A stretch of 64,000 bases of DNA from Microgenomates group bacterium (GCA_049303675.1 JBAQNJ010000001.1:408711-472710), one strand, 5' to 3'. Positions 42,759 through 55,984 are shown, counted from the stretch's first letter. Notes: a model not told the origin generated them from the letters alone. Made by a program: numbers and translations.

Positions 42759-44378
42759 ATGACAATCATGTCTCTTCGCGATCTTTTCAAATATGTCAGT
42801 CTCAAGAAATCACACAGTATTTTTTCAGCTAGTCTTGTCCTCGGGATTACCTTCGGATTATCGGCTATTCTCGGGTTTCTCCGGAGTCGTTTTCTCTATG
42901 CTCAGTTTTTCAACTGCTGTGTCTTAGAGCTCGATGCTTACAATGCAGCCTTCCGGTTGCCCGATTTAATCTTCAAATTACTAGTTACCGGTGCACTTTC
43001 AGCGTCATTTATCCCTGTCTTTAGCTCATATTTACACAAAGATGAACACAAGGCATACGAAGTAGCCTCATCTGTGATAAATCTACTTCTGATTGTCTTT
43101 ACCCTCGCTTCACTCTTGGTCTTGATCTTTGCCAAGCCTTTGTCTGGCATAATTGCCCACGGGTTCACCCCCGAGCAACTAGTACTCATGACTAGTCTGA
43201 CACGCATTTTATTAATAGCCCAGGTTTTCTTCCTCATTAGCAACTTCTTGACTGGTATGCTCCAGGTTCACCAGGTATTTATTATCCCCGCCCTTTCACC
43301 CATTGTTTACAATATTTTTATTATTCTCTCTATCTTCATTTTAGCCCCGACCATGGGTATTTATGGAGTAGCCATTGGCTCAGTCGTTGGTGCCTTTTTT
43401 CATTTAGCCATTCAAATTCCCACCGCCAAGGCCATGGGAGTCAAGTATCGTTTTGAAATCAAAACTCAGCTCGCTGGAGTCAAAGAAGTCATTAGACTCA
43501 TGTTACCTCGCAGTTTATCCCTAGGATTAGGTGAAATCGAGAATACAGTGACTTTGTTCTTCGCTAGCAGTTTGGCAGCCGGCTCTATCTCTCTTCTCAA
43601 TCTAGCCATGCAACTAATGTACTTACCCAGTCGAATTTTTGGGACTACAGTCGGTCAAGCATCACTCCCTATTCTTTCCAAAAACATCGCCCGCAACGAG
43701 CTAGATTTATTTAGAGATACTGTTCGTAAGACAATTTCCCAAAGTTTGTTTATTGCCGTTCCTATCACTGTTTTAGTTCTGGTCCATCGCCTAGCTATTA
43801 TCCGCATTGCCTTTGGTACCCGCCAATTTCCGTGGGCTGCTACTCTGCTGACAGCCAAAACTTTGGCCTATCTTACTCCAGCCATTGTTTGTCAAGCTGT
43901 CATTCAAATACTCGTCAGAGCCTTTTATGCCATCCACGATACCAAAACTCCACTTAAAGTTTCTTTCTTCTCTCTGGCCATCAACATTTCCTCAGCCTAT
44001 TTTCTGATTAATTACACCGATCTCGGAATTCTGGGACTAGCCATCAGTGCCTCACTTGGGAATCTCACCCAATGCCTTGGTTTATTTTATCTGTTCATCA
44101 AAACAGTTGACGGCGCTGGATGGCAGCAGACTTATTGGCACTATTTCAAAATATTACTGGCCTCTTTTATATTGGGCCTTACTTCTTGGGTCTGTGTTCA
44201 GTTTTTTGATTTATTTGTGCTCGATACCTCCCGAACCATCAACTTAATAATTTTATCCTCTCTCTCCGTTTTAATAAGTATATTTGTCTATTACTTCATT
44301 GCTATTTATCTACAAATTTCCGAAATATATGATTATCAACACTATTTTGGCAAGCTAACTAGATTTTTCAAAAGATAA
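42759..44378 (+). CDS. murJ: lipid II flippase MurJ (MviN)
   Basis: 539 aa, about 14 TM segments; LPRSLSLGLGEIENTV...GQASLPILS conserved region. Confidence 0.85.
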   Translation: MTIMSLRDLFKYVSLKKSHSIFSASLVLGITFGLSAILGFLRSRFLYAQFFNCCVLELDAYNAAFRLPDLIFKLLVTGALSASFIPVFSSYLHKDEHKAYEVASSVINLLLIVFTLASLLVLIFAKPLSGIIAHGFTPEQLVLMTSLTRILLIAQVFFLISNFLTGMLQVHQVFIIPALSPIVYNIFIILSIFILAPTMGIYGVAIGSVVGAFFHLAIQIPTAKAMGVKYRFEIKTQLAGVKEVIRLMLPRSLSLGLGEIENTVTLFFASSLAAGSISLLNLAMQLMYLPSRIFGTTVGQASLPILSKNIARNELDLFRDTVRKTISQSLFIAVPITVLVLVHRLAIIRIAFGTRQFPWAATLLTAKTLAYLTPAIVCQAVIQILVRAFYAIHDTKTPLKVSFFSLAINISSAYFLINYTDLGILGLAISASLGNLTQCLGLFYLFIKTVDGAGWQQTYWHYFKILLASFILGLTSWVCVQFFDLFVLDTSRTINLIILSSLSVLISIFVYYFIAIYLQISEIYDYQHYFGKLTRFFKR

Positions 44379-44427: not shown

Positions 44428-44991
44428 ATGCCAGTCAAAAAGGAGATGTCTTTTTTACCAGACGAAGAGGATGTCAACTCTCTCTCGGCCCGTGTCATCC
44501 GCTGGGTCACCACTGTTGGGCGTTTTGTTATTGTCTTTACCGAGCTAATAGTTATTTGCGCTTTTTTATCCCGTTTTTGGCTCGACCGCACCAACTCTGA
44601 TTTATCCGAAGTTGTCCGTCAGCAAAAAGCCATTTTAGAAAGCACCTCAGAGTTTGAAAATGATTATGCCCAGCTCCAAAGACGCCTAGAACTTATCCAG
44701 AAAATATATGCTTCTCAGCCAGAATATCAGACCAAAGTTGATACTCTCATCCAGAGTACCCCCTCCGATATCAATTACAACAGTCTTACTATTACCCACG
44801 ATCCCGACAAAAAAGAAGTTTCCGCCATCATCAATCTCTCTGCCTATCAAGAATCATCCATTGTCAACTTTATCACCAATTTAATTGCCAACCCCAAAAT
44901 AAGCTCAGTCGATATCAAGAAAATTGAAAAAAGGTCCAATGATAATAAATACAATGTCAATTTGTCATTAGTTTTTTCCCAAAAAGTATGA
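44428..44991 (+). CDS. PilN-like type IV pilus/competence assembly protein
   Basis: Short cytoplasmic N-terminus, single TM, periplasmic coiled-coil domain; 187 aa. Confidence 0.4.
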   Translation: MPVKKEMSFLPDEEDVNSLSARVIRWVTTVGRFVIVFTELIVICAFLSRFWLDRTNSDLSEVVRQQKAILESTSEFENDYAQLQRRLELIQKIYASQPEYQTKVDTLIQSTPSDINYNSLTITHDPDKKEVSAIINLSAYQESSIVNFITNLIANPKISSVDIKKIEKRSNDNKYNVNLSLVFSQKV

Positions 44992-45641
44992 GCCTAAACA
45001 TCGACAATCAGGTCAGTCGAATGAGGCCATTGTTTGATTTTATAAAAAAACAACAAGAAAATCGTCAATTCGTTAGGTCGGTTGAAATTACCGCCACTTT
45101 TGTCTTAATTACCTTTTTTCTAATTTTTGCCGTCAGACCAACCATCATCACTATCGCCAGTCTTCGTGGTGATATCGAATCGAAGAAAATCCTCAAGTCA
45201 GAATTAAAAAACAAAATCAATCAAGTTATCCAGGCACAAGACCTCTTTTCCCAAGTCCAAGAGCGATATCAGGTCATAAACAGTAGTCTCCCCGATAGGC
45301 CCAACTTTTATGATGCTGCCGACATAATTACCCAAATTTCCCAAAAAAACAGCATCACCCTCAACTCAATATTATTTGATTTAGAGGTAGTGCCATATAA
45401 AAACGAACCGAGTGTCAAATCATACAGCCTCCAAATCGGAGTTAGTGGATCTTTTGACAGTGCCCTCAATATTGCCTCAGAGTTACTCAAAAACCGTCGT
45501 ACCGACAACATTAGTTCCCTCAACTTTACCACTGGTCTTTCTCCCAATCAGAAAAGCGCCAGCCCCAGCGCCAGTTCCGGAGTCATCACCTCATTTTCCA
45601 CTCATTTTTATTATTGGCCAGCCACTTATGGAAAAAAATAA
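44988..45641 (+). CDS. PilO-like type IV pilus/competence assembly protein
   Basis: Single TM followed by a coiled coil and an alpha/beta domain; translationally coupled to the PilN-like gene. Confidence 0.4.
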   Translation: MSLNIDNQVSRMRPLFDFIKKQQENRQFVRSVEITATFVLITFFLIFAVRPTIITIASLRGDIESKKILKSELKNKINQVIQAQDLFSQVQERYQVINSSLPDRPNFYDAADIITQISQKNSITLNSILFDLEVVPYKNEPSVKSYSLQIGVSGSFDSALNIASELLKNRRTDNISSLNFTTGLSPNQKSASPSASSGVITSFSTHFYYWPATYGKK

Positions 45642-45831
45642 AATATCGGGATATCTCCTTTTAATTAGTGTTTTTACCTTTGCAGCCGTCTTTATTTATA
45701 TTGTTCAAAAAAGTTACGATGGTATGATGAAACCAATCCGTGACGTCAAACAGAGTGTCATAATTAAGCCAATTAATCCCAATTTTGATCTTAGTACTTT
45801 AGATGAAATTGAAAAAAGAGGTACCCCATGA
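45628..45831 (+). CDS. small single-TM protein
   Basis: MEKNKISGYLLLISVFTFAAVFIYIV; 67 aa. Track ORF 45412..45831 overlaps pilO-like; the internal ATG is more likely. Confidence 0.3.
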   Translation: MEKNKISGYLLLISVFTFAAVFIYIVQKSYDGMMKPIRDVKQSVIIKPINPNFDLSTLDEIEKRGTP

Positions 45832-47120
45832 AAAAGGAATTTAAATTCCCTACTATTATTGGTGTTGGGTTTTTGCTCATCTCTGTTTTTGTAGGCGTCA
45901 AGTATTCCACTAGAACAACTACTACCAGTTCAAACGCCTCAGGTAGTTGTCAGCCTGACAATGTCCAGATAACCAATCTCACCCACAATAGCGCTAGCTT
46001 ATCATTTTTAACTTCATCCAAATGTCAGTCCACCGTCTCTCTTGACAATCAAATTATCAAGGATCTCAAGGCAGAGACATTAAATATACCCGAATTATCT
46101 TCTCGGATTCATTATTTTTTTATCAATAATCTCAAGGAAAAGACCACCTACAACTATTCCATTATTTCTGGAGGCAGTACTTACCAAGAAAAATCCTACA
46201 GTTTTATCACTGGCTCTACGCCGATTAGTGGTACTCCCAACTCAAATTTGGCCTGGGGTAAGGTATTCTCACCCGACGGCAAAACCCCGGGTAACGCTCT
46301 TGTTTTTCTAAATATATCTGGGGCCTATCCCCTATCTTCGATGGTCACTACCAATGGCAACTGGTCGATTTCTCTGGCCAGTAGTTTTAATGATACTCAG
46401 ACAAATTGGTTCACCCTCTCGGATACTGTCTCCTCCGAAGATATTATTGTCTATTCCGAAGATGGAGTTTTTACTCAAGTTACCAATTCTACATCACGCA
46501 ATAATCCTGTCCCCGATATCATTATTGGTACCAATTCTCTGGATACTACAAATTATGACACTGCTAAAAATAGTAGTACCGGTCAAGTCGACTCTATCTC
46601 TCCAGTTGTCGATCAAAAAAAAGTCGATATTGCCAATCCTCGCGAGGGTGATATGCTCAATGTCTTGCGACCTGATTTTTTCGGCAGTGCCCCCAACAGT
46701 ACCCAAGTCATTATTGAAGTCCACTCTGACACAGTCATCAATGGCCAAACAACCTCTGACACCAGTGGTAATTGGCATTGGTCACCCCCCCAGAATCTTG
46801 AGCCAGGTCAGCATACTATCACTGTCAAATCACTCAATAAAAACACTGGTATCTGGGAAACAATCACCCGCTCATTTACAGTTCTAGCCTCCGACAACCT
46901 TTCCAGCCCCAACTTCGAGGCATCTGGATCTGCTTCTACACCCTCACCCGCAGCCACATTAGTTTCCACCCTAGCCCCCACGAAGACTCCGGTTCCTACA
47001 ATTCGGACTGCCCACCCTAGTACTACCATCCAGCCGCCAGTTACTGCCAATTATCTGCCTACCATCGTCATATTTATTTTCTCTTTTCTTTTTATATTAA
47101 TCTCGTTTAAACTATTGTAG
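45828..47120 (+). CDS. secreted Ser/Thr-rich surface protein with FN3-like repeats and C-terminal TM anchor
   Basis: N-terminal TM/signal; FN3-like VQITNLTHNSASLSF; C-terminal hydrophobic tail LPTIVIFIFSFLFILISFKLL. Confidence 0.45.
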   Translation: MKKEFKFPTIIGVGFLLISVFVGVKYSTRTTTTSSNASGSCQPDNVQITNLTHNSASLSFLTSSKCQSTVSLDNQIIKDLKAETLNIPELSSRIHYFFINNLKEKTTYNYSIISGGSTYQEKSYSFITGSTPISGTPNSNLAWGKVFSPDGKTPGNALVFLNISGAYPLSSMVTTNGNWSISLASSFNDTQTNWFTLSDTVSSEDIIVYSEDGVFTQVTNSTSRNNPVPDIIIGTNSLDTTNYDTAKNSSTGQVDSISPVVDQKKVDIANPREGDMLNVLRPDFFGSAPNSTQVIIEVHSDTVINGQTTSDTSGNWHWSPPQNLEPGQHTITVKSLNKNTGIWETITRSFTVLASDNLSSPNFEASGSASTPSPAATLVSTLAPTKTPVPTIRTAHPSTTIQPPVTANYLPTIVIFIFSFLFILISFKLL

Positions 47121-48061
47121 TGAGTAAAATATTATTTCAATGGCGTTATCAAATTTTAACAGTAGTTTTTTTGCTACTTTCACTCACCGGTACAATGTAT
47201 TTAGTTGGATATAATCAGGATAATCGAGACAAAGCAGTTGGTAATGACAAGTGTCAGGCTGGCCAAAAATTGTGTCAAGAAAATAAACAGGGTCAAAATA
47301 CCGGCTATCTTTGTGAATGTCTCACCGAGCTAGACCCCAACGATTGGCGCTGCACCACCCAAGATCTAAAAACATGCCCCACCGATAGTGGAGGAGTTGA
47401 TCCCAGTTTTTTTGCTTGTGACCCTCAGGGTAGTATGACTATTGCCGGTCGATGTCTAGTCGCCAAATCAGGATCAAAAATAGATATTGCTTTCAAGTAT
47501 AATTGTCCGGACAAATTTGGGATGAGTAATGGTTGTCAACAAAACGAATCAGTTGTTCAAAATGTCACTAGTGTTTGTTTTGAAAATAATTTTTGTGGCA
47601 CTCAACAAATTGATAGCAAAACAGGCAGCTGCTTCATTAGTGTAGAAGACCATAATGGCTGCAATAATACACCCACAAAGCTACCTTCACCTACTCCCAC
47701 CAAAACACCAGTTCCCACTCGCACACTCACTCCAACACGTACCCCCACCCCAACCAAGACTCCTACTCCTACAAAAACACCTACAATTACGCCTTTTAAC
47801 ACCTCTATTCCTACATATCCAGTTACCAGTACACCAACTCAAGTTGCCACCAACACTCCTACAAATACTCCAACCAATACTCCCACTGGCACTGTTGCTC
47901 CCACAAACACGCCAATGTCTACAAATACCCCGACTGTTATTCCCACTGGACCCAGTCCTACTCGGATAATATTACCCAATGCTGGTTTTGATTTTCCCAT
48001 TCAGGCATTGTCAGTGGTTGGTATAATCACCACACTCTTTGGATTATTAATTCTTCTCTAA
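47120..48061 (+). CDS. secreted Cys-rich / Thr-Pro-repeat surface protein with C-terminal LPNAG plus hydrophobic tail
   Basis: Signal/TM, 16 Cys in the first 170 aa, (TPTPTK)n repeats, and C-terminal RIILPNAGFDFPIQALSVVGIITTLFGLLILL. Confidence 0.45.
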   Translation: MSKILFQWRYQILTVVFLLLSLTGTMYLVGYNQDNRDKAVGNDKCQAGQKLCQENKQGQNTGYLCECLTELDPNDWRCTTQDLKTCPTDSGGVDPSFFACDPQGSMTIAGRCLVAKSGSKIDIAFKYNCPDKFGMSNGCQQNESVVQNVTSVCFENNFCGTQQIDSKTGSCFISVEDHNGCNNTPTKLPSPTPTKTPVPTRTLTPTRTPTPTKTPTPTKTPTITPFNTSIPTYPVTSTPTQVATNTPTNTPTNTPTGTVAPTNTPMSTNTPTVIPTGPSPTRIILPNAGFDFPIQALSVVGIITTLFGLLILL

Positions 48062-48062
48062 A

Positions 48063-48986
48063 GTGAAAGGTAATATAAAAATATTTTCATTACTAGAAGC
48101 ACTTCGACCGAGCCAGTGGATCAAAAATTTAAGTTTATTTGCCGCCGTTATTCTCAATGGACAGCTCTTCAACCTCGAGAGTTTAGTTCCCAGTATTTTA
48201 GCTTTTGTTACATTTTGTTTTTTATCATCATCCTCATATTTAGTGAATGATATTTTAGACAAAGATAAGGATATTCAGCACCCCTACAAAAAAAATCGCC
48301 CCATAGCTAGGGGAGATGTCTCTACCACTGTGGCTACATTTGCCAGCTTTTTTCTGCTCTTTACTGGTCTAGGTATTGCCATGATTATTAGCTCAGAATT
48401 TTTTTTCATCTCGCTTCTCTTTATTATTTTGCAGTATTCCTATTCGTTCTTTTTCAAGAAAAAAGCAGTTGTGGATATCGCCGGAATATCCTTGTTTTTT
48501 ATTATACGTGCCTTTGCCGGTGAAATTGCCTCTGGCTACCACTTACCTATCTGGATTATGTTGACAGTCATTTTTCTGTCTTTATTTATTGCCAGTGGAA
48601 AACGCCGCAGTGAACTCATCAATTCTGGAAAGAAGACCCGTGCCGCACTCAGTGGATATGGTCGGTCACTTTTAAATTTTTATACCACGATGTTTGCTGT
48701 TTGTACTCTAATTGGTTATTCTATGTACGCTTTTTTTGAAGACAAACTAAAGTTTCAGGGCATTATTCATGAATTCTTGTTGGATAATTTTCCTGCTGCT
48801 ATCGATCGAAAGTGGTACATGTTGTCCATCATTCCTGTTATCTACGGAATTATGCGCTACGGACAAATAATTTTTGAAATGCAAGAGGGTGAGAGGCCCG
48901 AACGAGCCATTGCCACCGATATACCACTAATAATTTCCGTGCTCTCTTGGGGGTTGATGATAATTACTATTATTTATGTCCTTTAG
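48063..48986 (+). CDS. UbiA-family prenyltransferase, decaprenyl-phosphate phosphoribosyltransferase (DPPR synthase)-like
   Basis: N-terminal LRPSQWIKNLSLFAAV (RPxQWxKN signature of the DPPR synthase subfamily), NDILDKDKD (NDxxDxxxD) and HPYKKNRPIARGDVS. Confidence 0.75.
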   Translation: MKGNIKIFSLLEALRPSQWIKNLSLFAAVILNGQLFNLESLVPSILAFVTFCFLSSSSYLVNDILDKDKDIQHPYKKNRPIARGDVSTTVATFASFFLLFTGLGIAMIISSEFFFISLLFIILQYSYSFFFKKKAVVDIAGISLFFIIRAFAGEIASGYHLPIWIMLTVIFLSLFIASGKRRSELINSGKKTRAALSGYGRSLLNFYTTMFAVCTLIGYSMYAFFEDKLKFQGIIHEFLLDNFPAAIDRKWYMLSIIPVIYGIMRYGQIIFEMQEGERPERAIATDIPLIISVLSWGLMIITIIYVL

Positions 48987-50487
48987 TTCTGGTTTGTTAT
49001 TTTTTATTGCTTTAATTACCCGATTTTTTGGTTTAACTTGGGGTGGTGGTTTCCCTTTCCATCCAGATGAAAACAACATGGTCAATGCCATTGTGCAAAT
49101 GACCCCTATTAATTTGAATCCTCATTTTTTCGCCTATGGCCAATTTCCCCTATATTTAGGATATATTACCCAGCTAATTCTCGGGTTGCCTCACAACGCT
49201 ATCGCTATTACCTATGTACTCCGTTTCTGGTCAGCCATCTTTTCCACCTTGTCCGTTTATCTTTTTTATCTTATAAACCGGCAACTATTTCCCAAAATAA
49301 ATCCTTTTATTGCCACCTTACTTTTTATATTTACTCCGGGACTCATCCAAATAGCACATTTTGGTACCACTGAGAGTTTGTTGGTTCTTATTTTTTTGTC
49401 GACTATATATCTCTCCCTAAAACTCTATGGTCAGCCATTTCAATACAAATATTATTTTTGGCTAGCTTTAATATGTGGCATTGGAGTCTCTTCAAAACTC
49501 AGCTCCATAGTCTTTATTTTTCCAATATTGTTAGTTTCTCTGATAAGTTTTTTTAAACATAATAAAAAGCTTCATGTAGTTTTTTTTACTTTTTACTTTT
49601 TACTATTTACTTTAGTATTTTTTATATTATTTTCTCCATTCAATATTTTGTCCAGAGCTGATTTTCTCTCAGCCCTTAAATATGAGACCGAAGTCGCCAC
49701 CGGCACATTGTCAGTGTTTTATACTACTCAGTTTAAAAACACTTTACCTTATATATATCAAATAACCCATATCTTTCCATATGTTATTGGACTGCCCCTT
49801 AGTCTATTCTCCTTATTTGGTTTATGTATGTCGTTTAGAAAATATCATCAGTCCCTGTTCATAGTCTATGCCTCAGTTATTTTTTATTTTCTCTATTTTG
49901 GCCAGACATATGTCAAATGGACCCGTTTTATGTCACCTATATTTTTTATATTTCCCCTTATCGCCGCCATCTTTATTAATCAAATCCACTCCAAGAATTA
50001 TAGATATTTTGTTCTGATTGCTGCCATTCTCCCTGGGATATTTTTCCTGAAACTATATCTGTATCCCGATATTAGAATCACCGCTTCAAAATGGATAATC
50101 GAAAATCTACCCGACAAAACAACCATTTTGTCCGAAGGTGGCAATGTCGTCAACATTCCGGTTCTGGAAAATAACTTTGAAATAGACAATTACGACTTTT
50201 ATCAATACCATGTTGACACCTTATCCAAATCTATCGCCAAATCTGATTACATTATCATTCCTTCACGTCGAGTTTTTAAGAATTATAACTATACCTATTA
50301 CCAACATTTATTTGATGGCACACTCGGCTTTTCAAAAATCAAAGAGTTTGTCCCCGACAAATATCTGTTTTTTAATCCAGAAAATGCCGAGGAAACATGG
50401 ACAGTCTTCGACCGTCCTACCATCAGAATTTACCAGAAAACCACTCAACTGTCCCTTGAAGAATACTCTAGTTTATTAGAAAATTAA
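48976..50487 (+). CDS. GT-C polytopic membrane glycosyltransferase (GT39/GT83-like)
   Basis: First loop FHPDENNMVN...NPHFFAYGQFPLY; more than 10 TM segments; paralogue of 50506. Confidence 0.6.
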   Translation: MSFSSGLLFFIALITRFFGLTWGGGFPFHPDENNMVNAIVQMTPINLNPHFFAYGQFPLYLGYITQLILGLPHNAIAITYVLRFWSAIFSTLSVYLFYLINRQLFPKINPFIATLLFIFTPGLIQIAHFGTTESLLVLIFLSTIYLSLKLYGQPFQYKYYFWLALICGIGVSSKLSSIVFIFPILLVSLISFFKHNKKLHVVFFTFYFLLFTLVFFILFSPFNILSRADFLSALKYETEVATGTLSVFYTTQFKNTLPYIYQITHIFPYVIGLPLSLFSLFGLCMSFRKYHQSLFIVYASVIFYFLYFGQTYVKWTRFMSPIFFIFPLIAAIFINQIHSKNYRYFVLIAAILPGIFFLKLYLYPDIRITASKWIIENLPDKTTILSEGGNVVNIPVLENNFEIDNYDFYQYHVDTLSKSIAKSDYIIIPSRRVFKNYNYTYYQHLFDGTLGFSKIKEFVPDKYLFFNPENAEETWTVFDRPTIRIYQKTTQLSLEEYSSLLEN

Positions 50488-50545
50488 AAATTTGTTAATT
50501 AAAAATTGAATAAAAATTTAAAATTAAAAATTAAAAATTATTATC
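50487..50545. repeat. AT-rich (aaattaaaaatt)n repeat forming the leader/N-terminus of the GT-C gene
   Basis: Contains a 28-mer identical to korA 28673-28700. Encodes (TTG)NKNLKLKIKNYY. Confidence 0.7.
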
Positions 50546-52260
50546 CAATAGTAATAATTTTTATGTTGGCACTGTCTGTTAGATTATATGGTCTCAATTG
50601 GGATCAGGGCCAACACCTCCATCCCGATGAGAGAATGATTGTCATGGTCACCGAGAAAATATCTATCCCCACCACAAACCTCTTTTCGGTCGATTCTACC
50701 CTCAATCCTCATTTTTTTGCCTATGGCTCACTGCCAATCTATCTCTTGAAGTTCACTTCGTCATTACTCGTACCCATTTTTCCCCAAATTGGTTCTTATG
50801 AGCAAATAAATTTGTTAGGTCGAGTTATCTCGGCAATTTTTGACTCACTTACAGTTCTTCTGATTTTCCATATTTGCCAACGAATGTTCGAGAACACCCG
50901 ACAAAGCTTATTGGCTGCCTTAGTCTATACAGTCTCCATTTTACCCATTCAGTTGTCTCATTTTTATGCCGTAGACACTATTCTCACTTTTTTTATCTTC
51001 TTCACCCTTTTACAGCTTATAGCCTATTTTCAAAATCAAAAAATATTTAATTTACTGCTTGCTAGTATTGGTATTGGATTGTCTCTGGCTACAAAAATTA
51101 GTGCCACTGTCTTAGTTGCCTCACTCGGTACTAGTCTTGTTGCCGGTATCTTACTCACAATTAGAAATCAAATTTTTTCCCACAACCAACCGCTCCATCA
51201 AAAAATATCATCATTTATTGGGCACATATTCAGTCTAAAAAAGCTCAGACATTCACGTCTCTCAATAATAATTAAAGTATTTTGTTTGCTAATATTTACT
51301 TCTACTATAGCTGCGGTTGTTTTTATAGTTTGTGAACCATTTGCCCTCATCGATTACCCCAATTTTATTCGGCAGATAATGGAACAGCAGGCCATGACCA
51401 AAAACGCCTTTGTTTTTCCCTACACTCTCCAGTATGTCAACACCACTCCGTATTTATACCAATTAGAAAATATATTTTTATGGGGATTAGGTCCAATTAT
51501 TGGGACATTATCTTTTATTGGGTTTATCATCGTTAATATCAAACTCGTCAAAGGTCTTATTGTCCCTGGCAATGATCAATCAGAGGGTGCCCAATTAATT
51601 ATCCTCACATTTTTTTTGGCATATTTTTTCGTTGTGGGTGGTTTTGCTATCAAGTTCATGCGGTATTGTTTACCTCTTTATCCAATTTTTATAATTTACG
51701 CTGCCCATTTACTTACTAGTATTAAATCAAAGTTTGTTGTTTTATTTATTTTCTTAGGACATCTATGTTTATTGTTTGCTTTTTTGGCTATTTATCGTTT
51801 GCCCAACACCCGTGTCACCGCCACCAATTGGATAAACAGTCAGGTTCCCCAAGGTTCAACTATTCTCATCGAGCATTGGGACGATGCCCTACCCCTAGGT
51901 TATTTAAACAATCTTAATCAAATCTCTTTGCCGCTTTATGATAGTGACAGTGATCCCCATAAATGGAACTTTATCAACCAAATGTTGGTCCGTGGCGACT
52001 ACATAATTATTGCCAGTAACCGCCTCTCTACCCCACTTCCAAAATTAGTCAACTGTGACCAGTTACCCGAAGACAAGTGTTATCCCCTTACTGCTCGGTA
52101 TTATCGTGATTTATTCGCGGGTAATCTAGGTTACACAAAAGTCGCCGAATTTACCAGCTATCCTACTTTATTTGGATTTTCTGTCAACGATCAATCAGCT
52201 GATGAGTCCTTTACTGTCTATGATCATCCTCAAATAATGATATTTAAAAAGACATTTTAG
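50506..52260 (+). CDS. GT-C polytopic membrane glycosyltransferase (GT39/GT83-like), paralogue
   Basis: LHPDERMIVM...NPHFFAYGSLPIY; 584 aa. TTG start per track; the start is uncertain and the next ATG is at about 50563. Confidence 0.6.
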   Translation: MNKNLKLKIKNYYPIVIIFMLALSVRLYGLNWDQGQHLHPDERMIVMVTEKISIPTTNLFSVDSTLNPHFFAYGSLPIYLLKFTSSLLVPIFPQIGSYEQINLLGRVISAIFDSLTVLLIFHICQRMFENTRQSLLAALVYTVSILPIQLSHFYAVDTILTFFIFFTLLQLIAYFQNQKIFNLLLASIGIGLSLATKISATVLVASLGTSLVAGILLTIRNQIFSHNQPLHQKISSFIGHIFSLKKLRHSRLSIIIKVFCLLIFTSTIAAVVFIVCEPFALIDYPNFIRQIMEQQAMTKNAFVFPYTLQYVNTTPYLYQLENIFLWGLGPIIGTLSFIGFIIVNIKLVKGLIVPGNDQSEGAQLIILTFFLAYFFVVGGFAIKFMRYCLPLYPIFIIYAAHLLTSIKSKFVVLFIFLGHLCLLFAFLAIYRLPNTRVTATNWINSQVPQGSTILIEHWDDALPLGYLNNLNQISLPLYDSDSDPHKWNFINQMLVRGDYIIIASNRLSTPLPKLVNCDQLPEDKCYPLTARYYRDLFAGNLGYTKVAEFTSYPTLFGFSVNDQSADESFTVYDHPQIMIFKKTF

Positions 52261-52279
52261 ATCATTTAAATATGATATA

Positions 52280-52873
52280 TTGGTTAATACAAAAACAAAT
52301 ATGAATTTACTCTTTTGGCAGCCACAAAAAAATTACTATCAAATTATAGCGTCATCAGTTTTTGGAAAATTTTTACTAATATCTTCAAACTATATTACCT
52401 GGATTTTCCTAATTTATCCCTCCTATCTACTGGTCAAATTCGATTCCAATATATTTTGGCAACTACTATTTGCCACAGTTCTAGGAGAAATAATTGAGAA
52501 GGTTGTTAAACTGAAGAAATACTGGAAAAGACCGACCTTCGCCAAAAGTATTGATGTGCCTTACGGATTGATTAAGTCGTGGTATCTCACCGGTTCATTT
52601 CCCTCCGGCCACACCATCAAAGCCACTTTTTTTTTGTTGTTGCTCCTCCACTACCAACTATTTTTTTTGGCCTTTATACTCGTAATTGTCCCCCTCTTAT
52701 ATTTTCGTGTCTTAATTGGTTTTCACTATCCCATAGACATTATTGGAGGAATTGTCATTGGTGCTGTTATTTACTTTCTGGTAACCTATATCCAAATGCC
52801 ACCAGTCATAAATCAATATATCCAAAATATTTTTTCTGTCATTTTTTATTATCCGATTAAGCTAGGAATATAA
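52280..52873 (+). CDS. PAP2-superfamily phosphatase (polyprenyl-phosphate/phospholipid phosphatase)
   Basis: PAP2 motifs KRPTF...PSGH...RVLIGFHYPIDIIGG (KxxxxxxRP, PSGH, SRxxxxxHxxxD). Confidence 0.7.
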   Translation: MVNTKTNMNLLFWQPQKNYYQIIASSVFGKFLLISSNYITWIFLIYPSYLLVKFDSNIFWQLLFATVLGEIIEKVVKLKKYWKRPTFAKSIDVPYGLIKSWYLTGSFPSGHTIKATFFLLLLLHYQLFFLAFILVIVPLLYFRVLIGFHYPIDIIGGIVIGAVIYFLVTYIQMPPVINQYIQNIFSVIFYYPIKLGI

Positions 52874-52874
52874 C

Positions 52875-53921
52875 ATGTCCCTGCCAAAAACTATATTAAT
52901 CACTGGCGGATCGGGATTTCTCGGTATAAATTTGACCCGTTTTTTATTGAAAAAAGGTTACCGAGTAATTGTTTACGACATTGCCAAATTTGACTATCCC
53001 GAGAAAGACAAGGTAACTTGCCTGATCGCCGATGTCAGGGATAGGACTGCTCTAAAAAGGGCTCTTAGAGGTGTCGATGTCGTTGTCTCTGCTGCGGCAG
53101 CACTACCCCTCTATCCCCGCACCGAAATACTATCAACAACTATTGATGGTACTCGAAATGTTTTAGAGATATCTCAGAGTTTGGGAATCAAACGGGTCAT
53201 TTATATTTCGTCTACCGCTGTCTATGGAATCCCCGATCACCATCCTCTGTTAGAGGATGACAAATTATATGGTGTCGGTGCCTATGGAGAAGCCAAGGTG
53301 GAGGCAGAAAATATCTGCAATCAATACCGTCAAAATGGTTTTTCTGTTCCGGTCATTCGACCAAAATCCTTTGTTGGCCCAGAGAGATTGGGAGTATTTT
53401 CCTTATTCTACGATTGGGCCAAGGATGGTAAAAACTTCCCTATGATGGGGGATGGTAAAAATAAGTACCAACTACTCGACGTCGAAGACTTATGTCAAGC
53501 CATCTTTACCTGTATTACCGGTAAAGATAGTCAGGTAAACCACACTTTCAATATTGGAGCCAAGGAGTTCACCACCATGAAAGCAGACTATCAGGCAGTA
53601 CTAGACTTTGCCGGTTTTCACAAAAAAATAATTTGTTTTCCCAAAAAACCAATGATAACTGCCTTAAGAATATTAGAATTTTTTCATCTCTCTCCTCTTT
53701 ACAAATGGGTCTACGAAACTGCCGGTGAAGACTCATTTGTTTCTATCGCTAAGGCCGAAAAACTGTTAGGTTACAAACCAAAGTTTTCCAATAAACAGGC
53801 TCTAATCAGAAACTATAAGTGGTATTTGGCCAACTTAGACAAGTTCACCGGACTTTCTGGTGTCAGTCATCGAGTGCCCTGGAGTCAAGGTATACTAACA
53901 TTAGTCAAAATATGTTTCTAA
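52875..53921 (+). CDS. NAD-dependent epimerase/dehydratase (extended SDR)
   Basis: ILITGGSGFLG (GxxGxxG) and YGEAK (YxxxK); 348 aa. Confidence 0.8.
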   Translation: MSLPKTILITGGSGFLGINLTRFLLKKGYRVIVYDIAKFDYPEKDKVTCLIADVRDRTALKRALRGVDVVVSAAAALPLYPRTEILSTTIDGTRNVLEISQSLGIKRVIYISSTAVYGIPDHHPLLEDDKLYGVGAYGEAKVEAENICNQYRQNGFSVPVIRPKSFVGPERLGVFSLFYDWAKDGKNFPMMGDGKNKYQLLDVEDLCQAIFTCITGKDSQVNHTFNIGAKEFTTMKADYQAVLDFAGFHKKIICFPKKPMITALRILEFFHLSPLYKWVYETAGEDSFVSIAKAEKLLGYKPKFSNKQALIRNYKWYLANLDKFTGLSGVSHRVPWSQGILTLVKICF

Positions 53922-55984
53922 CTGACTTCAACTATATCTTCTTCTGGTGGCTGGTCTATTTTGTCTTTGGGATGGCAGGACTACCGCTAACTTTTTATTT
54001 TTTTGGTAAATTTTGGGACAAAGGCTATATTTTTGCCAAGACAATTGGCTTAGTTATCACCACCTTTTTTATTTTGGTTTTTGGTATTTTCAAATTAATT
54101 CCCTTCTCTTCTGTCTCAGTAGTTTTTTTGATGATGGCCACTGCCTTAATCGGGCTTATTTTACTTAAGCAAAAAAATACTTTGAATACTTTTAATAGTA
54201 TTATCAGAACACATTGGAAAATATTTTTATTTGAAGAAATTATCTTTTTATTAATTCTTACCCTCTGGAGTTATATTCGTGGTTTTGCCCCCGACATCGA
54301 AGGGCTAGAAAAATTTATGGACTGGGGATTTGTCAATTCGGCTCTTCGTTCTCAATTCATGCCCCCCCTTGATATGTGGTTCTCTGGTTTCCCCATAAAT
54401 TATTATTATTTTGGTCACCTCGAAATTGCCGTCTTGGCCAAAATAAGTACCCTTGATTCAGCTATAGTCTACAATTTAGCCATTGCTTCAACTTGTGCCC
54501 TGACTTTTGTTAATTCATTTTCCCTCGTGAGTAACCTCATTGCCAAATCCCTTTCAAAAATAAATTTACGATTAGTTGTACTCGGTGGGCTACTCTCTTC
54601 CCTGTTGTTAACTTTTGGCGGTAATCTACATCCTCTTTACAAAATTGGTGCCAACATAATCAAAAACGAAAGTCGGCTGATTATAAATCAAAAAACACTG
54701 ACTCAGGCTTCTTCATCTTATTGGTATCCGGATGCGACTCGGTTTATCGGCTTTGATCCAGATGTCCCTGACAAAACTATTCATGAATTTCCTTTATATA
54801 GCTTCGTCGTCGCCGATCTTCATGGACACATGAACGACATCCCCAACATATTATTGTTTATGGCGGTTTTACTTAGCTTATTTTTATTTAATTCTATTCA
54901 GAGTTTCTCTTGGGTCTTGATTCTTCCTTCCGCCTTTCTATTGTCTGTCGCCTACATGACCAATGCTTGGGATTTTGCAGTTTATGGACTTCTCTATGGC
55001 ATTTTTAGTGTTTTGTCACTATGGAACAGCCACAATTTTCGTCAGGCCATCATTGTCACCACCATCAACGGTCTGCTTGTCATTGTCTGTTGGTATATTT
55101 TCACCATACCTTTTTCACTCAATTTTTCTCCCATGACAGAGGGTCTCCGTTTATCTGATTCCCATTCACCTTTTTATCAACTTTTCGTGCTTTATGGCGG
55201 CTTTTGGCTAATTGCCCTGCCCTTTATTTTATTGGCAATAAAAAAAATGTTTTTTCATCACTTTTCACTAATCACTGATCACTTTATTCTTGCTCTAATT
55301 ATTACTGCCACCATTCTAATTATTATTCCCGAAGTTGGTTATATTAAGGATATTTATATATTTGAGCATCGTCGGGCCAACACCATGTTCAAACTGGTCT
55401 ATCAGGCTTTTATCTTGTATTCTTTAGTTTCTGGCTACATATTGGTCAAATTTCGACAAAACCTGTTTGCCAAAATCATTATCATTTTAGTCATGGCTAG
55501 CCATCTAATTTATCCTTTTTTTGCTATCAAGGGCTATTATCCCCTGACTGAATATAAAGGTATCTGGGGTCTCAACTTTCTCAAAAACAACTACCCCGAC
55601 AATTTGACTGCTATTAATTGGCTTAACAAAAATATCTCCGGCCAACCCGTAATTTTGGAGGCTGTCGGCGATAGTTACACTACCTTTAATCAGGTTTCCA
55701 TGGCTACTGGTTTACCTACTGTTGAGGGCTGGATAGTTCACGAATGGCTCTGGCGCGGCGGTTATGACCAGCCCAGTGCTCGTCAAAACGATGTCCAAAA
55801 AATATATGAATCTAGTGACCCAACCGAAGTTAGAAGTCTACTCCAAAAATATTCAGTCGAATATATTTTTGTAGGTGACAAAGAGAGAGAAAAATATTCA
55901 ACTCTGGACGAAAAAATGTTTGAAAATATCGGTGCCAAATCTGTCTTTCAGTCAGGGCAAACAAAAGTTTATAAAATATTTTAA
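53912..55984 (+). CDS. large polytopic membrane protein, putative GT-C-like glycosyltransferase with C-terminal soluble domain
   Basis: About 690 aa, more than 12 TM segments, YYYFGHLEIA loop, C-terminal extracytoplasmic domain of about 170 aa. Track ORF starts at 53819 inside the epimerase gene; the ATG at 53912 is more likely. Confidence 0.45.
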   Translation: MFLTDFNYIFFWWLVYFVFGMAGLPLTFYFFGKFWDKGYIFAKTIGLVITTFFILVFGIFKLIPFSSVSVVFLMMATALIGLILLKQKNTLNTFNSIIRTHWKIFLFEEIIFLLILTLWSYIRGFAPDIEGLEKFMDWGFVNSALRSQFMPPLDMWFSGFPINYYYFGHLEIAVLAKISTLDSAIVYNLAIASTCALTFVNSFSLVSNLIAKSLSKINLRLVVLGGLLSSLLLTFGGNLHPLYKIGANIIKNESRLIINQKTLTQASSSYWYPDATRFIGFDPDVPDKTIHEFPLYSFVVADLHGHMNDIPNILLFMAVLLSLFLFNSIQSFSWVLILPSAFLLSVAYMTNAWDFAVYGLLYGIFSVLSLWNSHNFRQAIIVTTINGLLVIVCWYIFTIPFSLNFSPMTEGLRLSDSHSPFYQLFVLYGGFWLIALPFILLAIKKMFFHHFSLITDHFILALIITATILIIIPEVGYIKDIYIFEHRRANTMFKLVYQAFILYSLVSGYILVKFRQNLFAKIIIILVMASHLIYPFFAIKGYYPLTEYKGIWGLNFLKNNYPDNLTAINWLNKNISGQPVILEAVGDSYTTFNQVSMATGLPTVEGWIVHEWLWRGGYDQPSARQNDVQKIYESSDPTEVRSLLQKYSVEYIFVGDKEREKYSTLDEKMFENIGAKSVFQSGQTKVYKIF

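Follow-up and report, generated by a model that had tools for sequence, protein, structure and literature searches.

Pathways in which a pentofuranose is carried on polyprenyl phosphate and used by GT-C glycosyltransferases have long been described in mycobacteria, and Citrobacter was added in 2024. The Citrobacter systems combine a UbiA-family polyprenyl-phosphate 5-phosphoribosyltransferase (PPPRS) with a phosphatase, a flippase, a GT-C and auxiliary epimerases, a combination noted as widespread (Kelly et al. 2024, PNAS, PMC11127046). Their accessory single SDR epimerase acts on undP-Ribf to give xylofuranose, whereas arabinofuranose systems carry DprE1/DprE2 homologues in place of the single SDR (PMC11127046). 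Among the latter is the O-arabinofuranosylation of type IV pilin in Pseudomonas aeruginosa, where a PPPRS orthologue and DprE1/E2 homologues accompany a GT-C that uses the PPPRS-derived lipid-linked pentofuranose on Ser/Thr of a surface protein (PMC11127046). The locus described here, originally predicted to encode a possibly undescribed pathway, is thus not a new kind of system, the claim having been overtaken by that study (PMC11127046).

The 64-kb stretch of DNA analysed (the window) comes from a bacterium of the candidate phyla radiation (CPR) whose genome is small and has a G+C content of 39%. The host was rightly called CPR-like, since the sequence derives from a MAG labelled “Microgenomates group bacterium”, on a contig of 998 kb. 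To our knowledge, no relevant enzyme activity, lipid intermediate or glycan has been described in CPR organisms. The cluster and its relevant neighbours comprise the following features:

42759..44378, + strand: MurJ (MOP-superfamily flippase), context only; TIGR01695, 273.5 bits against 235.55
45828-47120 and 47120-48061, + strand: two secreted Thr/Pro-rich proteins, context only; from translations, with C-terminal membrane anchors
48063..48986, + strand: predicted UbiA-family polyprenyl-phosphate 5-phosphoribosyltransferase (PPPRS/DPPR-synthase type), 307 aa; PF01040, NF008978 and motifs
48976..50487, + strand: GTC1, GT-C glycosyltransferase (PMT_2), 503 aa; PF13231
50506..52260, + strand: GTC2, GT-C glycosyltransferase (PMT_2), 584 aa; PF13231, GTC1 paralogue
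52280..52873, + strand: PAP2-family phosphatase, 197 aa; PF01569, intact motifs
52875..53921, + strand: GalE-like extended SDR, accessory gene, 348 aa; PF01370 and AlphaFold model
53912..55984, + strand: DUF2298/TIGR03662 “Chlor_Arch_YYY” membrane protein, 690 aa; GT-C fold, AglB-like domain at the C-terminus

As had been proposed, positions 48063-55984 hold six packed, co-directional ORFs, all on the + strand. Neighbouring ORFs are spaced by -11 to +19 nt, overlapping or almost abutting as in a single transcription unit, and no terminator-like sites were found between the six genes. The start of the last gene is most likely the ATG at 53912 (690 aa) rather than the GTG at 53819; an identical NCBI protein is annotated in this way. 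The predicted count of three GT-C proteins in the operon was right, and they are correctly described as two PMT_2 proteins and one DUF2298 protein. A further GT-C reported at 16622-17860 is real and also of the PMT_2 type, but it lies on the - strand amid housekeeping genes.

The UbiA protein matched Pfam PF01040 (E=1.7e-25) and scored 211.2 bits against the NCBIfam model NF008978, “decaprenyl-phosphate phosphoribosyltransferase”, above the curated cut-off of 207. Its top PDB match was Rv3806c (8j8j; E=3e-35), the mycobacterial member of the same NCBIfam family and its best solved relative. The RPxQWxKN signature on which the original DPPR-synthase assignment was based is present as RPSQWIKN (residues 15-22), together with NDILDKDKD (residue 62) and GKRRSE (residue 179). 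The latter two were conserved in 75/75 relatives, and RPSQWIKN in 74/75. PPPRS enzymes need an N/D-rich loop II and R/E in loop IV (Kelly et al. 2024, PNAS, PMC11127046); these catalytic loop motifs were found in the UbiA protein of the window and are conserved among its relatives. The assignment as a PPPRS/DPPR-synthase-type enzyme is thus supported at the level of sequence.

The predicted PAP2 protein was likewise present in the UbiA operon (51.6 bits against PF01569), but with the two PMT_2 genes in between. In the mycobacterial decaprenyl-phospho-arabinose pathway a PAP2 gene is also clustered with the PPPRS gene, and in M. tuberculosis Rv3807c, a PAP2-superfamily enzyme, directly adjoins Rv3806c. 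The active-site motifs KX6RP, PSGH and RX5HX3D were intact in the window and in all 58 sequences, duplicates included, from the 57 related loci in which PAP2 was detected. The protein is a candidate polyprenyl-P-ribose-5-phosphate 5'-phosphatase, in the role of Rv3807c. In Citrobacter youngae, by contrast, the phosphatase is a fused HAD domain. Active sites of PAP2 enzymes often face outward, which would make the order of dephosphorylation, epimerisation and flipping harder to explain.

GTC1 and GTC2 scored 44.1 and 43.6 bits, respectively, against PF13231 (gathering score 26.1), and are 28% identical over their full length (E=8e-50), in agreement with their description as paralogous GT-C transferases. 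They also match PMT_2 and PMT, as do the enzymes of ArnT/undecaprenyl-P-L-Ara4N lipid A modification and the PMT-type protein O-mannosyltransferases (GT83/GT39), and they have a conserved acidic HPDE motif after TM1 (D31 and E32 are invariant in GTC1). Their matches to the ArnT and Agl23 models are weak, however, with NCBIfam scores far under the cut-offs. The DUF2298 protein has a GT-C fold and, at its C-terminus, an AglB-like domain, even though no sequence similarity to any solved chain was detectable, also when the family profile was used. It shares a GT-C_A-type membrane core with the STT3/AglB/PglB oligosaccharyltransferases, but the family carries its own motifs, YYYxG and YWYPDATRFIGFDPD...HEFP. 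We take its conserved HEWLWRGGY stretch to recall the WWDYG motif of the oligosaccharyltransferases. Several GT-C consumers are likewise found in mycobacteria, but the window proteins fall outside the Emb/Aft Pfam families; in Citrobacter, the founder of GT136 is EpsG-like by CDD.

These assignments would also allow the three GT-C proteins to be hexosyltransferases using polyprenyl-P-mannose or -glucose made elsewhere, the adjacency of UbiA and PAP2 being no more than inherited synteny. On a Pseudobutyrivibrio plasmid, one DUF2298 homologue does lie in a polysaccharide cluster that includes GT2 enzymes but has no UbiA annotated, so that DUF2298 is not bound to pentose donors in general. Furthermore, the clade shares an entire syntenic block of ≈20 kb, MetRS to FemAB, and adjacency within the clade is therefore weak evidence. 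We nevertheless consider the hexosyltransferase reading very unlikely. No polyprenyl-P-hexose synthase (GT2) was present in the operon or in the scanned subset of window ORFs, and the overlapping and abutting genes resemble one transcription unit. Unrelated lineages give stronger evidence than synteny within the clade, and there, too, PPPRS genes are flanked by GT-Cs (PMT_2, TMEM260, YfhO, GT39). As far as we know, lipid-linked pentose serves only as a GT-C donor.

The arrangement UbiA-GTC1-GTC2-[slot]-PAP2-DUF2298 was observed across the loci of 59 related species, two of which are pared down to UbiA-PAP2-DUF2298, a reduction that also speaks against the hexosyltransferase explanation. GTC1 was found in 57 of the 59 (43-55% identity), and PAP2 always lies directly upstream of DUF2298. 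A synteny search, proposed with the original prediction, thus bore out a conserved core of UbiA, GTC1, GTC2, PAP2 and DUF2298, within a block that is syntenic as a whole, but not the SDR, which is outside this core. An SDR orthologue occurs in only 8/59 loci, always inside the hypervariable slot between GTC2 and PAP2, whereas the SDR gene in the window is downstream of PAP2. Across the loci, genes in the slot encode GT4, FkbM and SAM methyltransferases as well as additional PMT_2 proteins and SDRs. Slots with the orthologue contain only GT-Cs and no Leloir GT, and in 7/8 of these loci GTC2 is of the window subtype, with 50-57% identity compared to about 30-37% in most others (Mann-Whitney p=8e-6, a statistic that ignores phylogeny). 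The GTC2 of the window is one allelic type, whose occurrence goes along with that of the SDR. From the scarcity of the SDR it follows that the conserved pathway lacks an epimerase and would by default end in polyprenyl-P-ribofuranose rather than in a donor of arabinose.

The SDR belongs to the predicted extended class (PF01370, E=7e-40; TGGSGFLG and YGEAK motifs), and it is the single epimerase candidate of the cluster, which lacks a DprE1-type FAD oxidase, as had been noted. It is not the DprE2 counterpart that had been suggested: DprE2 is a classical SDR, while this protein is GalE-like and its adh_short match is under the Pfam cut-off. Unlike the mycobacterial pathway, then, the cluster has neither DprE1 nor a DprE2-type classical SDR, and its one extended SDR is dispensable in relatives. 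The AlphaFold model (pLDDT 85) is nearest to UDP-hexose 4-epimerases (TM about 0.75, 21-24% identity).

It is conceivable that the core pathway holds while the SDR, a common nucleotide-sugar epimerase or dehydratase, leaves the lipid-linked ribose alone and supplies a UDP- or dTDP-sugar for another glycan, with polyprenyl-P-ribofuranose as the GT-C donor in all strains. All of its Pfam, NCBIfam and PDB matches are nucleotide-sugar enzymes, and the family's identity of 60-70% among members in CPR, Chloroflexi and Firmicutes (47-49% with haloarchaea) would suit a universal soluble substrate. Most of the family is found away from UbiA: in an SDR-anchored metagenome sample, UbiA was a neighbour in 14/87 loci (median gap 41 nt), and where at least 3 kb was available on each side, 7/33 loci adjoined UbiA and about four-fifths did not. 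The copies of Roseiflexus, Chloroflexia and Acetivibrio also have other contexts, that of Roseiflexus adjoining LCP and MurJ. The family could thus have a more general substrate.

Several observations make this explanation unlikely in our view. No NCBIfam model scored the SDR at or above its cut-off, and its best solved relatives are distant, at the identities given above. The C-terminal tail (residues about 329-348; H332, R333, W336, K345 and F348 invariant) is conserved and is proposed to be a family-specific addition. The loci with an orthologue have no Leloir GT to use a nucleotide sugar, and the presence of the SDR follows the GTC2 subtype. PPPRS-type UbiA is the commonest neighbour of the family and the sole recurrent functional one; this holds in bacteria as well as archaea, and the phosphatase that goes with the pair is of five different types. 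Behind UbiA, the neighbour clusters that rank next by frequency in the metagenome sample are mostly housekeeping genes. The gene order is SDR-UbiA-HAD-RpiB-PRPP synthetase in Dojkabacteria, UbiA-SDR-ArnE/F-like SMR-HAD in Peregrinibacteria and TMEM260-HAD-SDR-UbiA-YfhO in a Gram-negative MAG, and haloarchaeal loci combine SDR/UbiA/PHP/LPG_synthase_TM/GT-C. The link recurs in Streptomyces, Nonomuraea and Rhizobium sp. CCGE531, the last at a locus listed by Kelly et al. (PMC11127046), whose epimerase-family protein is 35% identical to the window SDR (E=1e-58). We therefore retain the SDR as a candidate polyprenyl-P-ribofuranose epimerase.

GalE-type SDRs epimerise through transient oxidation and could in principle act on any secondary hydroxyl. 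A true decaprenyl-phospho-arabinose-like pathway, in which the SDR alone performs the C2 epimerisation of DprE1/DprE2 and the GT-Cs are arabinofuranosyltransferases, would be compatible with this property and with the PAP2 phosphatase, as in mycobacteria. However, the only characterised single-SDR system yields xylofuranose and every Araf system surveyed by Kelly et al. has DprE1/E2 homologues, which makes arabinose the less likely sugar. Most relatives lack the SDR, the Pfam families of the GT-Cs are PMT_2 and DUF2298 rather than those of arabinosyltransferases, and in the fold matches Aft scored below Pmt, STT3 and ALG. The arabinose-like donor of the original prediction was thus not borne out, and we regard such a pathway as quite unlikely.

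Taken together, family membership, motifs and gene context make it probable that the six genes specify a pathway for glycosylation with a polyprenyl-phosphate-linked pentofuranose, of the same kind as the mycobacterial route and the “three-component” system of Citrobacter. The logic originally proposed, from PRPP to polyprenyl-P-ribose-5-P, dephosphorylation, epimerisation and GT-C transfer, is supported on these grounds, with the epimerisation as an optional step. The PPPRS would move ribose-5-phosphate from PRPP to the polyprenyl-phosphate carrier, and PAP2 would strip the 5'-phosphate to leave polyprenyl-P-ribofuranose. In this genome and a minority of relatives, the accessory SDR, with bound NAD, would then epimerise the lipid-linked ribose, at C3 to xylofuranose by analogy with ORF13 of Citrobacter youngae O2, or possibly at C2 to arabinofuranose. 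The O1/O2 systems of that species (ORF15/ORF14/ORF12 plus ORF13) have the UbiA-family PPPRS, polyprenyl-P-ribose-5-P, dephosphorylation and GT-C use in common with this scheme, and there, too, a GalE-like single SDR sets the sugar (O2 versus O1), a pattern like its presence or absence across the relatives of the window.

A transporter would next flip the lipid-linked sugar. Unlike that of C. youngae, the cluster has no MATE or SMR flippase, and no SMR, GtrA, MATE-only or LPG_synthase_TM homologues were found in the 64-kb window. Along the run of co-directional genes, MurJ alone is of a flippase type, and we can only speculate that it flips the pentose lipid. Finally, GTC1, GTC2 and DUF2298 would pass the pentofuranose to acceptors outside the cytoplasm, which may be a surface glycan or else surface proteins rich in Thr/Pro. 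The Thr/Pro-rich pair, the first with a Big_13 domain, lies directly upstream of UbiA, a position kept in relatives; its role as an acceptor is speculation. The cluster is also just downstream of PilN/PilO-like genes, but the likeness to the P. aeruginosa system is positional only, and neither a pilin gene nor a homologue of DprE1/E2 was identified here.

The Citrobacter system is an O-antigen side-chain add-on, whereas the cluster described here counts among the conserved core loci of a CPR lineage. Most likely, the operon serves to assemble a ribose-derived sugar on a lipid carrier in the membrane for decoration of the cell surface. The core set probably fulfils a conserved role in the envelope of Shapirobacteria/Woesebacteria-type Microgenomates, while the hypervariable slot between GTC2 and PAP2 may alter the glycan in a manner comparable to serotype loci.

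Six open reading frames, all on the + strand, occupy the positions at which they had originally been predicted, and are joined by junctions of −11, +18, +19, +1 and −10 nt. A promoter and terminator scan found no intergenic terminator-like site inside the six-gene cluster and was otherwise uninformative. The genes are:

48063–48986, + strand: UbiA, UbiA-family protein (PF01040, Pfam)
48976–50487, + strand: GTC1, PMT_2 GT-C protein (Pfam/NCBIfam)
50506–52260, + strand: GTC2, PMT_2 GT-C protein (Pfam/NCBIfam)
52280–52873, + strand: PAP2 protein
52875–53921, + strand: SDR, extended SDR (PF01370, E = 7e-40)
53912–55984, + strand: DUF2298 protein (DUF2298/TIGR03662 "Chlor_Arch_YYY", 489 bits against a cut-off of 300)

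GTC1 and GTC2 are paralogues, with 28% identity over their full length (E = 8e-50). Identical proteins at NCBI are named decaprenyl-phosphate phosphoribosyltransferase (UbiA), NAD(P)-dependent oxidoreductase (SDR) and DUF2298 domain-containing protein; since the last of these is a product of 690 aa, the gene most likely starts at the ATG at 53912 rather than at the GTG at 53819. Directly upstream of UbiA, at 44428–48061, are genes for a PilN-like protein (a weak Pfam match), a PilO-like protein, a small membrane protein, and two secreted proteins that are rich in Thr and Pro and anchored at the C terminus, an arrangement that is kept in relatives. The second Thr/Pro-rich protein ends in a sorting-signal-like sequence (...LPNAGFDFP... 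followed by a transmembrane segment), and both could be acceptors for glycosylation. The additional GT-C gene at 16622–17860 also exists, encoding a PMT_2 protein of 412 aa on the − strand. It is isolated among genes of DNA repair and RNA modification, encoding a DinB-like polymerase, a PD-(D/E)XK nuclease, a pseudouridine synthase and a DUF4349 protein, outside any glycan cluster.

UbiA passed the cut-off of the NCBIfam model NF008978 by a narrow margin (211.2 bits against 207), and fell below that of NF008977 (186 against 234). Its scores against the heme O, ubiA, MqnP, ChlG and GGGP models were 17–52 bits, where the cut-offs are 180–419, which rules out a quinone-, haem- or chlorophyll-type prenyltransferase. 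The best solved relative is Rv3806c of M. tuberculosis (8j8j, E = 3e-35), and the UbiA loop motifs NDILDKDKD (residue 62) and GKRRSE (residue 179) align with NDVRDVEAD and GKRYAE of that enzyme. Both motifs are invariant in 75 of 75 relatives. The N-D-x-x-D-x-x-x-D motif of cytoplasmic loop II and the R/E of loop IV matter for the activity of polyprenyl-phosphate 5-phosphoribosyltransferases (PPPRS) (Kelly et al. 2024 and earlier work, PMC11127046). UbiA is, by sequence, a member of the PPPRS subfamily with a predicted catalytic activity, as the original prediction of a DPPR-synthase type had it. A phage search with UbiA returned one unannotated match, at 29% identity.

The PAP2 protein of the cluster carries the complete tripartite motif of its superfamily (KX6RP / PSGH / SRX5HX3D), in the form of KLKKYWKRP (residue 77), PSGH (108) and RVLIGFHYPID (143), and this motif is kept in 58 of 58 relatives. 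Rv3807c, which adjoins Rv3806c, belongs to the same superfamily, and we infer that PAP2 acts as the phosphoribose 5′-phosphatase partner of the PPPRS.

The SDR, of 348 aa, is the only such protein among the six. It displays the features of the extended, GalE-like SDRs, namely an N-terminal TGxxGxxG, a catalytic S/T...YxxxK and a two-domain extended fold, with TGGSGFLG at residue 10, SST at 112–114 and YGEAK at 137. Its adh_short match of 21 bits was below the cut-off of 26.6, and no NCBIfam model reached its cut-off in a scan of the protein. In a Foldseek search the nearest solved structures were UDP-hexose 4-epimerases (TM 0.71–0.76, 21–24% identity). An equivalence to DprE2, a classical SDR reductase, was rejected on account of this extended, GalE-like type. 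The family is unusually uniform in sequence: the SDR is 66–70% identical to proteins of Roseiflexus, Chloroflexia, Acetivibrio clariflavus, Dojkabacteria, Gracilibacteria and Peregrinibacteria, and identities are 60–70% from the candidate phyla radiation (CPR) to Chloroflexi and Firmicutes and 47–49% to haloarchaea, with a mean column identity of 77% over 48 diverse sequences. The C-terminal tail (residues ~329–348) is strongly conserved as SGVSHRVPWxQGxLxLxKIxF, with H332, R333, W336, K345 and F348 invariant; in the model it has low confidence and includes a short terminal helix. It is possible that the tail is a membrane-association element.

A prototype for such a system has been described in Citrobacter youngae, in which a PPPRS fused to a HAD phosphatase converts PRPP to undecaprenyl-P-ribofuranose (Kelly, Duong, Nothof, Lowary, Whitfield, PNAS 2024, PMC11127046). 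The predicted flippase is a MATE protein, and a GT-C enzyme, the founder of GT136, attaches the pentofuranose on the extracytoplasmic side (PMC11127046). Serotype O2 has a single component more than O1, a cytoplasmic GalE-like SDR (ORF13) that converts the donor, with the result that xylofuranose is added instead of ribofuranose, whereas arabinofuranose systems contain DprE1/DprE2 homologues (PMC11127046). Further systems were reported in Gram-positives and in a phage, along with "more elaborate" loci that have several epimerases or GT-Cs (PMC11127046).

In both the Citrobacter system and the window, a GT-C-fold transferase is encoded together with the PPPRS. The phosphatase is the HAD domain of ORF15 in Citrobacter, but a separate PAP2 protein, of the same type as Rv3807c, in the window. 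ORF12 is EpsG-like by CDD (PMC11127046), while the window has PMT_2 and DUF2298 proteins, so that the transferases probably belong to different GT-C families. ORF13 and the window SDR are both GalE-like, with TGxxGxxG and YxxxK. The mycobacterial DPA pathway, in contrast, employs the FAD oxidase DprE1 together with DprE2 for the 2′-epimerization; a profile search found no FAD-oxidase domain in the six cluster proteins, in agreement with the single epimerase and missing DprE1-type oxidase originally noted. The compact, single-epimerase polyprenyl-P-pentose pathway that had been proposed is thus biologically sound, and its logic was largely right for what is a real and coherent finding. The description of it as possibly undescribed overstated its novelty, since the prototype had been published (Kelly et al. 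2024, PMC11127046), and the analogy to arabinose and DprE2 is not supported. The Citrobacter prototype points to ribofuranose in loci without the SDR or xylofuranose in loci with it, rather than to arabinofuranose.

The Citrobacter locus has a MATE protein as its predicted flippase, whereas none of the six genes of the window cluster encodes a transporter, of the MATE or SMR family or otherwise. Searches of the 64-kb window by tblastn, for which SMR, LPG_synthase_TM and similar proteins served as queries, returned nothing. The only MOP-family gene encodes a MurJ that passes the MurJ equivalog cut-off, 3.7 kb upstream of the cluster. This MurJ is probably the lipid II flippase, and a role for it in carrying the pentose lipid is speculation.

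Scanning a single genome from each GTDB species, with UbiA as the anchor, we collected 78 Shapirobacteria/Woesebacteria-type Microgenomates loci, and three more with a Woesebacteria protein. The gene order is near-invariant: MetRS(−), MurJ, PilN, PilO, secreted protein(s), UbiA, GTC1, GTC2, a variable slot, PAP2, DUF2298, UvrD and FemAB. The neighbourhood is therefore conserved in related genomes; however, because the entire block from MetRS to FemAB is conserved, gene adjacency within the clade says little by itself. In two loci (L034 and L066; L-numbers denote loci from other genomes) both PMT_2 genes were lost, and a compact trio of UbiA, PAP2 and DUF2298 was retained. Many of the GTDB records with a Shapirobacteria-type cluster (L007, L008, L013, L026 and others) bear the title "uncultured Gammaproteobacteria bacterium", and one that of "Candidatus Methanoperedens sp.", apparently through mislabelling or mis-binning of the MAGs.

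The slot between GTC2 and PAP2 (equivalent to ~52260–52280 in the window) is hypervariable in loci L004–L081, ranging from 0 to 5.6 kb. It may hold a GT4 gene in reverse orientation (33 loci), FkbM-type and SAM methyltransferases, an extra PMT_2, HAD-like or DUF362 proteins, or two unrelated types of SDR, and its content already differs among the closest relatives of the window, whose UbiAs are 80–82% identical. Orthologues of the window SDR (58–66% identity) were present in only eight of the 59 loci that span the cluster, always before PAP2 rather than after it as in the window, while four other loci have an unrelated SDR (25% identity). The SDR is consequently an accessory, strain-variable component and not a core step. 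GTC2 was 50–57% identical to that of the window in seven of the eight SDR-positive loci, compared to ~30–37% in most others (Mann-Whitney p = 8e-6, uncorrected for shared ancestry), whereas the identities of UbiA, GTC1 and DUF2298 did not set SDR-positive loci apart from SDR-negative ones. No Leloir-type glycosyltransferase was found in the slot of the SDR-positive loci. In L009 (10650–11723) and L077 (4884–5939), a DUF362 protein with an Fe-S-type domain is found where other loci have the SDR, and GTC2 is of the window subtype (55% and 45% identity, respectively). This DUF362 protein may be an alternative tailoring enzyme.

Outside the clade, a PPPRS-type UbiA lies within 6 kb of the SDR homologue in at least eight of the 12 plasmid homologues listed. 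Among 80 metagenome loci sampled without bias by anchoring on the SDR, UbiA was adjacent in 13, and in seven of the 33 in which each flank reaches 3 kb or more. UbiA was the commonest neighbour cluster in this sample (median gap 41 nt), and the clusters ranking after it were mostly housekeeping genes, reflecting lineage synteny. Most sampled family members have no adjoining UbiA. In the family tree, the UbiA-linked members are scattered, but there is one large clade, to which the Chloroflexi copies belong, without any linked member. Contexts without UbiA include those in Roseiflexus (ValRS-SDR-LCP-MurJ), Chloroflexia (ABC1-LPG_synthase_TM-oxidase-methyltransferase-SDR), A. clariflavus and an 11-Mb genome. 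The ABC1 protein in Chloroflexia is a kinase, the oxidase an amine-oxidase-type flavoprotein and the methyltransferase UbiE-like.

The linked cases include close homologues of the SDR (Dojkabacteria, Peregrinibacteria and a Gram-negative MAG) as well as more distant ones. The Dojkabacteria locus L084 (JAFGMG010000001.1, 8001–11863) contains SDR, UbiA (PPPRS), HAD, RpiB and PRPP synthetase as a single run of genes, ahead of which lie three large membrane proteins that match no Pfam or NCBIfam model; the run amounts to a complete, self-contained supply line from ribose-5-P through PRPP to lipid-linked ribose or pentose. Peregrinibacteria have PMT_2...UbiA-SDR-ArnE/F-like SMR-HAD-GT2-Bac_transf-Wzy_C, and the UbiAs of both lineages pass the NF008977 cut-off. 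A Gram-negative MAG has TMEM260(GT-C)-HAD-SDR-UbiA-YfhO(GT-C)-FkbM-LPG_synthase_TM. On haloarchaeal megaplasmids (SDR 47–49% identical), including Halostagnicola larsenii plasmid NZ_CP007056.1 (L169) and a plasmid of Natronococcus sp. CG52 (L170), a PPPRS, a PHP-domain protein, LPG_synthase_TM, DolP-Man-type/GT39 GT-Cs and sulfotransferases lie next to the SDR, which hints at a pathway for lipid-linked pentose in archaea that may include sulfation. UbiA also adjoins the SDR homologue in Streptomyces (38% identity) and Nonomuraea (36%). Rhizobium sp. CCGE531, whose locus was listed as a candidate system by Kelly et al. 2024 (PMC11127046), has an epimerase-family protein 35% identical to the window SDR.

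Across these lineages the phosphatase varies (PAP2, HAD-IB, HAD-IIIA, PHP, EEP or a fused HAD) while PPPRS, SDR and GT-C recur, a pattern of non-orthologous displacement that is typical of a conserved pathway. The SDR family is a recurrent partner of PPPRS in bacteria and archaea, and its recognition as such is new. Genes for LPG_synthase_TM, which resembles the flippase domain of MprF, turn up repeatedly in the vicinity of the SDR, whether or not UbiA is present (L086, L087 and L096, which are Chloroflexi-like, and L088, L105 and L172), and are candidates for the flippase of the lipid-linked sugar.

The DUF2298 protein has a multi-pass membrane core that can be superimposed on solved GT-C enzymes, and its first extracytoplasmic loop bears an acidic residue that is conserved; computationally, it is a GT-C-fold protein. 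DUF2298/TIGR03662 is a large family, with ~6,500 representatives at 50% clustering. The most conserved stretches, residues 273–298 (YWYPDATRFIGFDPD..DKTIHEFP) and 585–618 (GDSYTTFNQVS..TGLPTVEGWIVHEWLWRGGY), are those with the lowest confidence in the model, and are probably mobile substrate-binding loops. We take the second stretch to be reminiscent of the WWDYG motif of oligosaccharyltransferases. For linkage of DUF2298 to PPPRS outside the clade, a single informative plasmid case was found, without an annotated UbiA: a homologue with 31% identity on plasmid pNP95 of Pseudobutyrivibrio xylanivorans (L174, 70272–72527; Lachnospiraceae), set in a polysaccharide cluster that also encodes GT2s, an O-antigen-ligase-family protein and an aminotransferase. 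We therefore do not extend the link between DUF2298 and PPPRS beyond the clade, and DUF2298 need not be specific for a pentose donor. The DUF2298 enzymes of different lineages probably use different lipid-linked donors. A literature search found nothing relevant on DUF2298, on PPPRS in Patescibacteria, or on GT-C glycosylation in the CPR.

From these genes we infer a pathway, with its enzymatic activities, order of steps, sugar, acceptor and topology. The PPPRS would use PRPP to form polyprenyl-P-ribose-5-P, which PAP2 would dephosphorylate to polyprenyl-P-ribofuranose (Ribf). The SDR, where present, would convert this to an epimeric pentofuranose, a flippase would carry the lipid-linked sugar across the membrane, and GTC1, GTC2 and DUF2298 would transfer it to acceptors on the surface. 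PAP2 active sites are often outward-facing; such an orientation would sit awkwardly with the SDR, which must work in the cytoplasm. It is a tentative proposal, and rather doubtful as a whole, that the SDRs are a new, very conserved family of single-subunit polyprenyl-phospho-ribofuranose epimerases and, jointly, that DUF2298 is a new family of GT-C pentofuranosyltransferases. If so, the SDR family would widely take the place of the DprE1/DprE2 enzyme pair in both Bacteria and Archaea, and DUF2298 and the two PMT_2 proteins would assemble a pentofuranose glycan, or protein O-glycan, that is a core part of the Microgenomates envelope and varies in the manner of serotypes.

What is new here is that a putative pentofuranose system forms a conserved core locus of a CPR lineage, with a slot that varies as serotype loci do. 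Also new are the PMT_2 and DUF2298 proteins as the predicted GT-Cs of such a system, and the GT-C assignment of DUF2298 itself, by which a large family annotated as "function unknown" gains a testable function. As a likely single-enzyme epimerase partner of PPPRS, the conserved SDR family bears on the origin of the diversity of Ribf, xylofuranose (Xylf) and arabinofuranose (Araf), and stands in contrast to DprE1/DprE2, which is a target for tuberculosis drugs. To our knowledge, almost nothing has been established experimentally about CPR cell envelopes, and a conserved operon with a clear biochemical prediction, namely that GT-C enzymes use a lipid-linked pentofuranose derived from PRPP, offers a concrete handle on them. 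The hypervariable slot suggests diversification of surface glycans in these episymbiotic bacteria, perhaps driven by interactions with phages or hosts.
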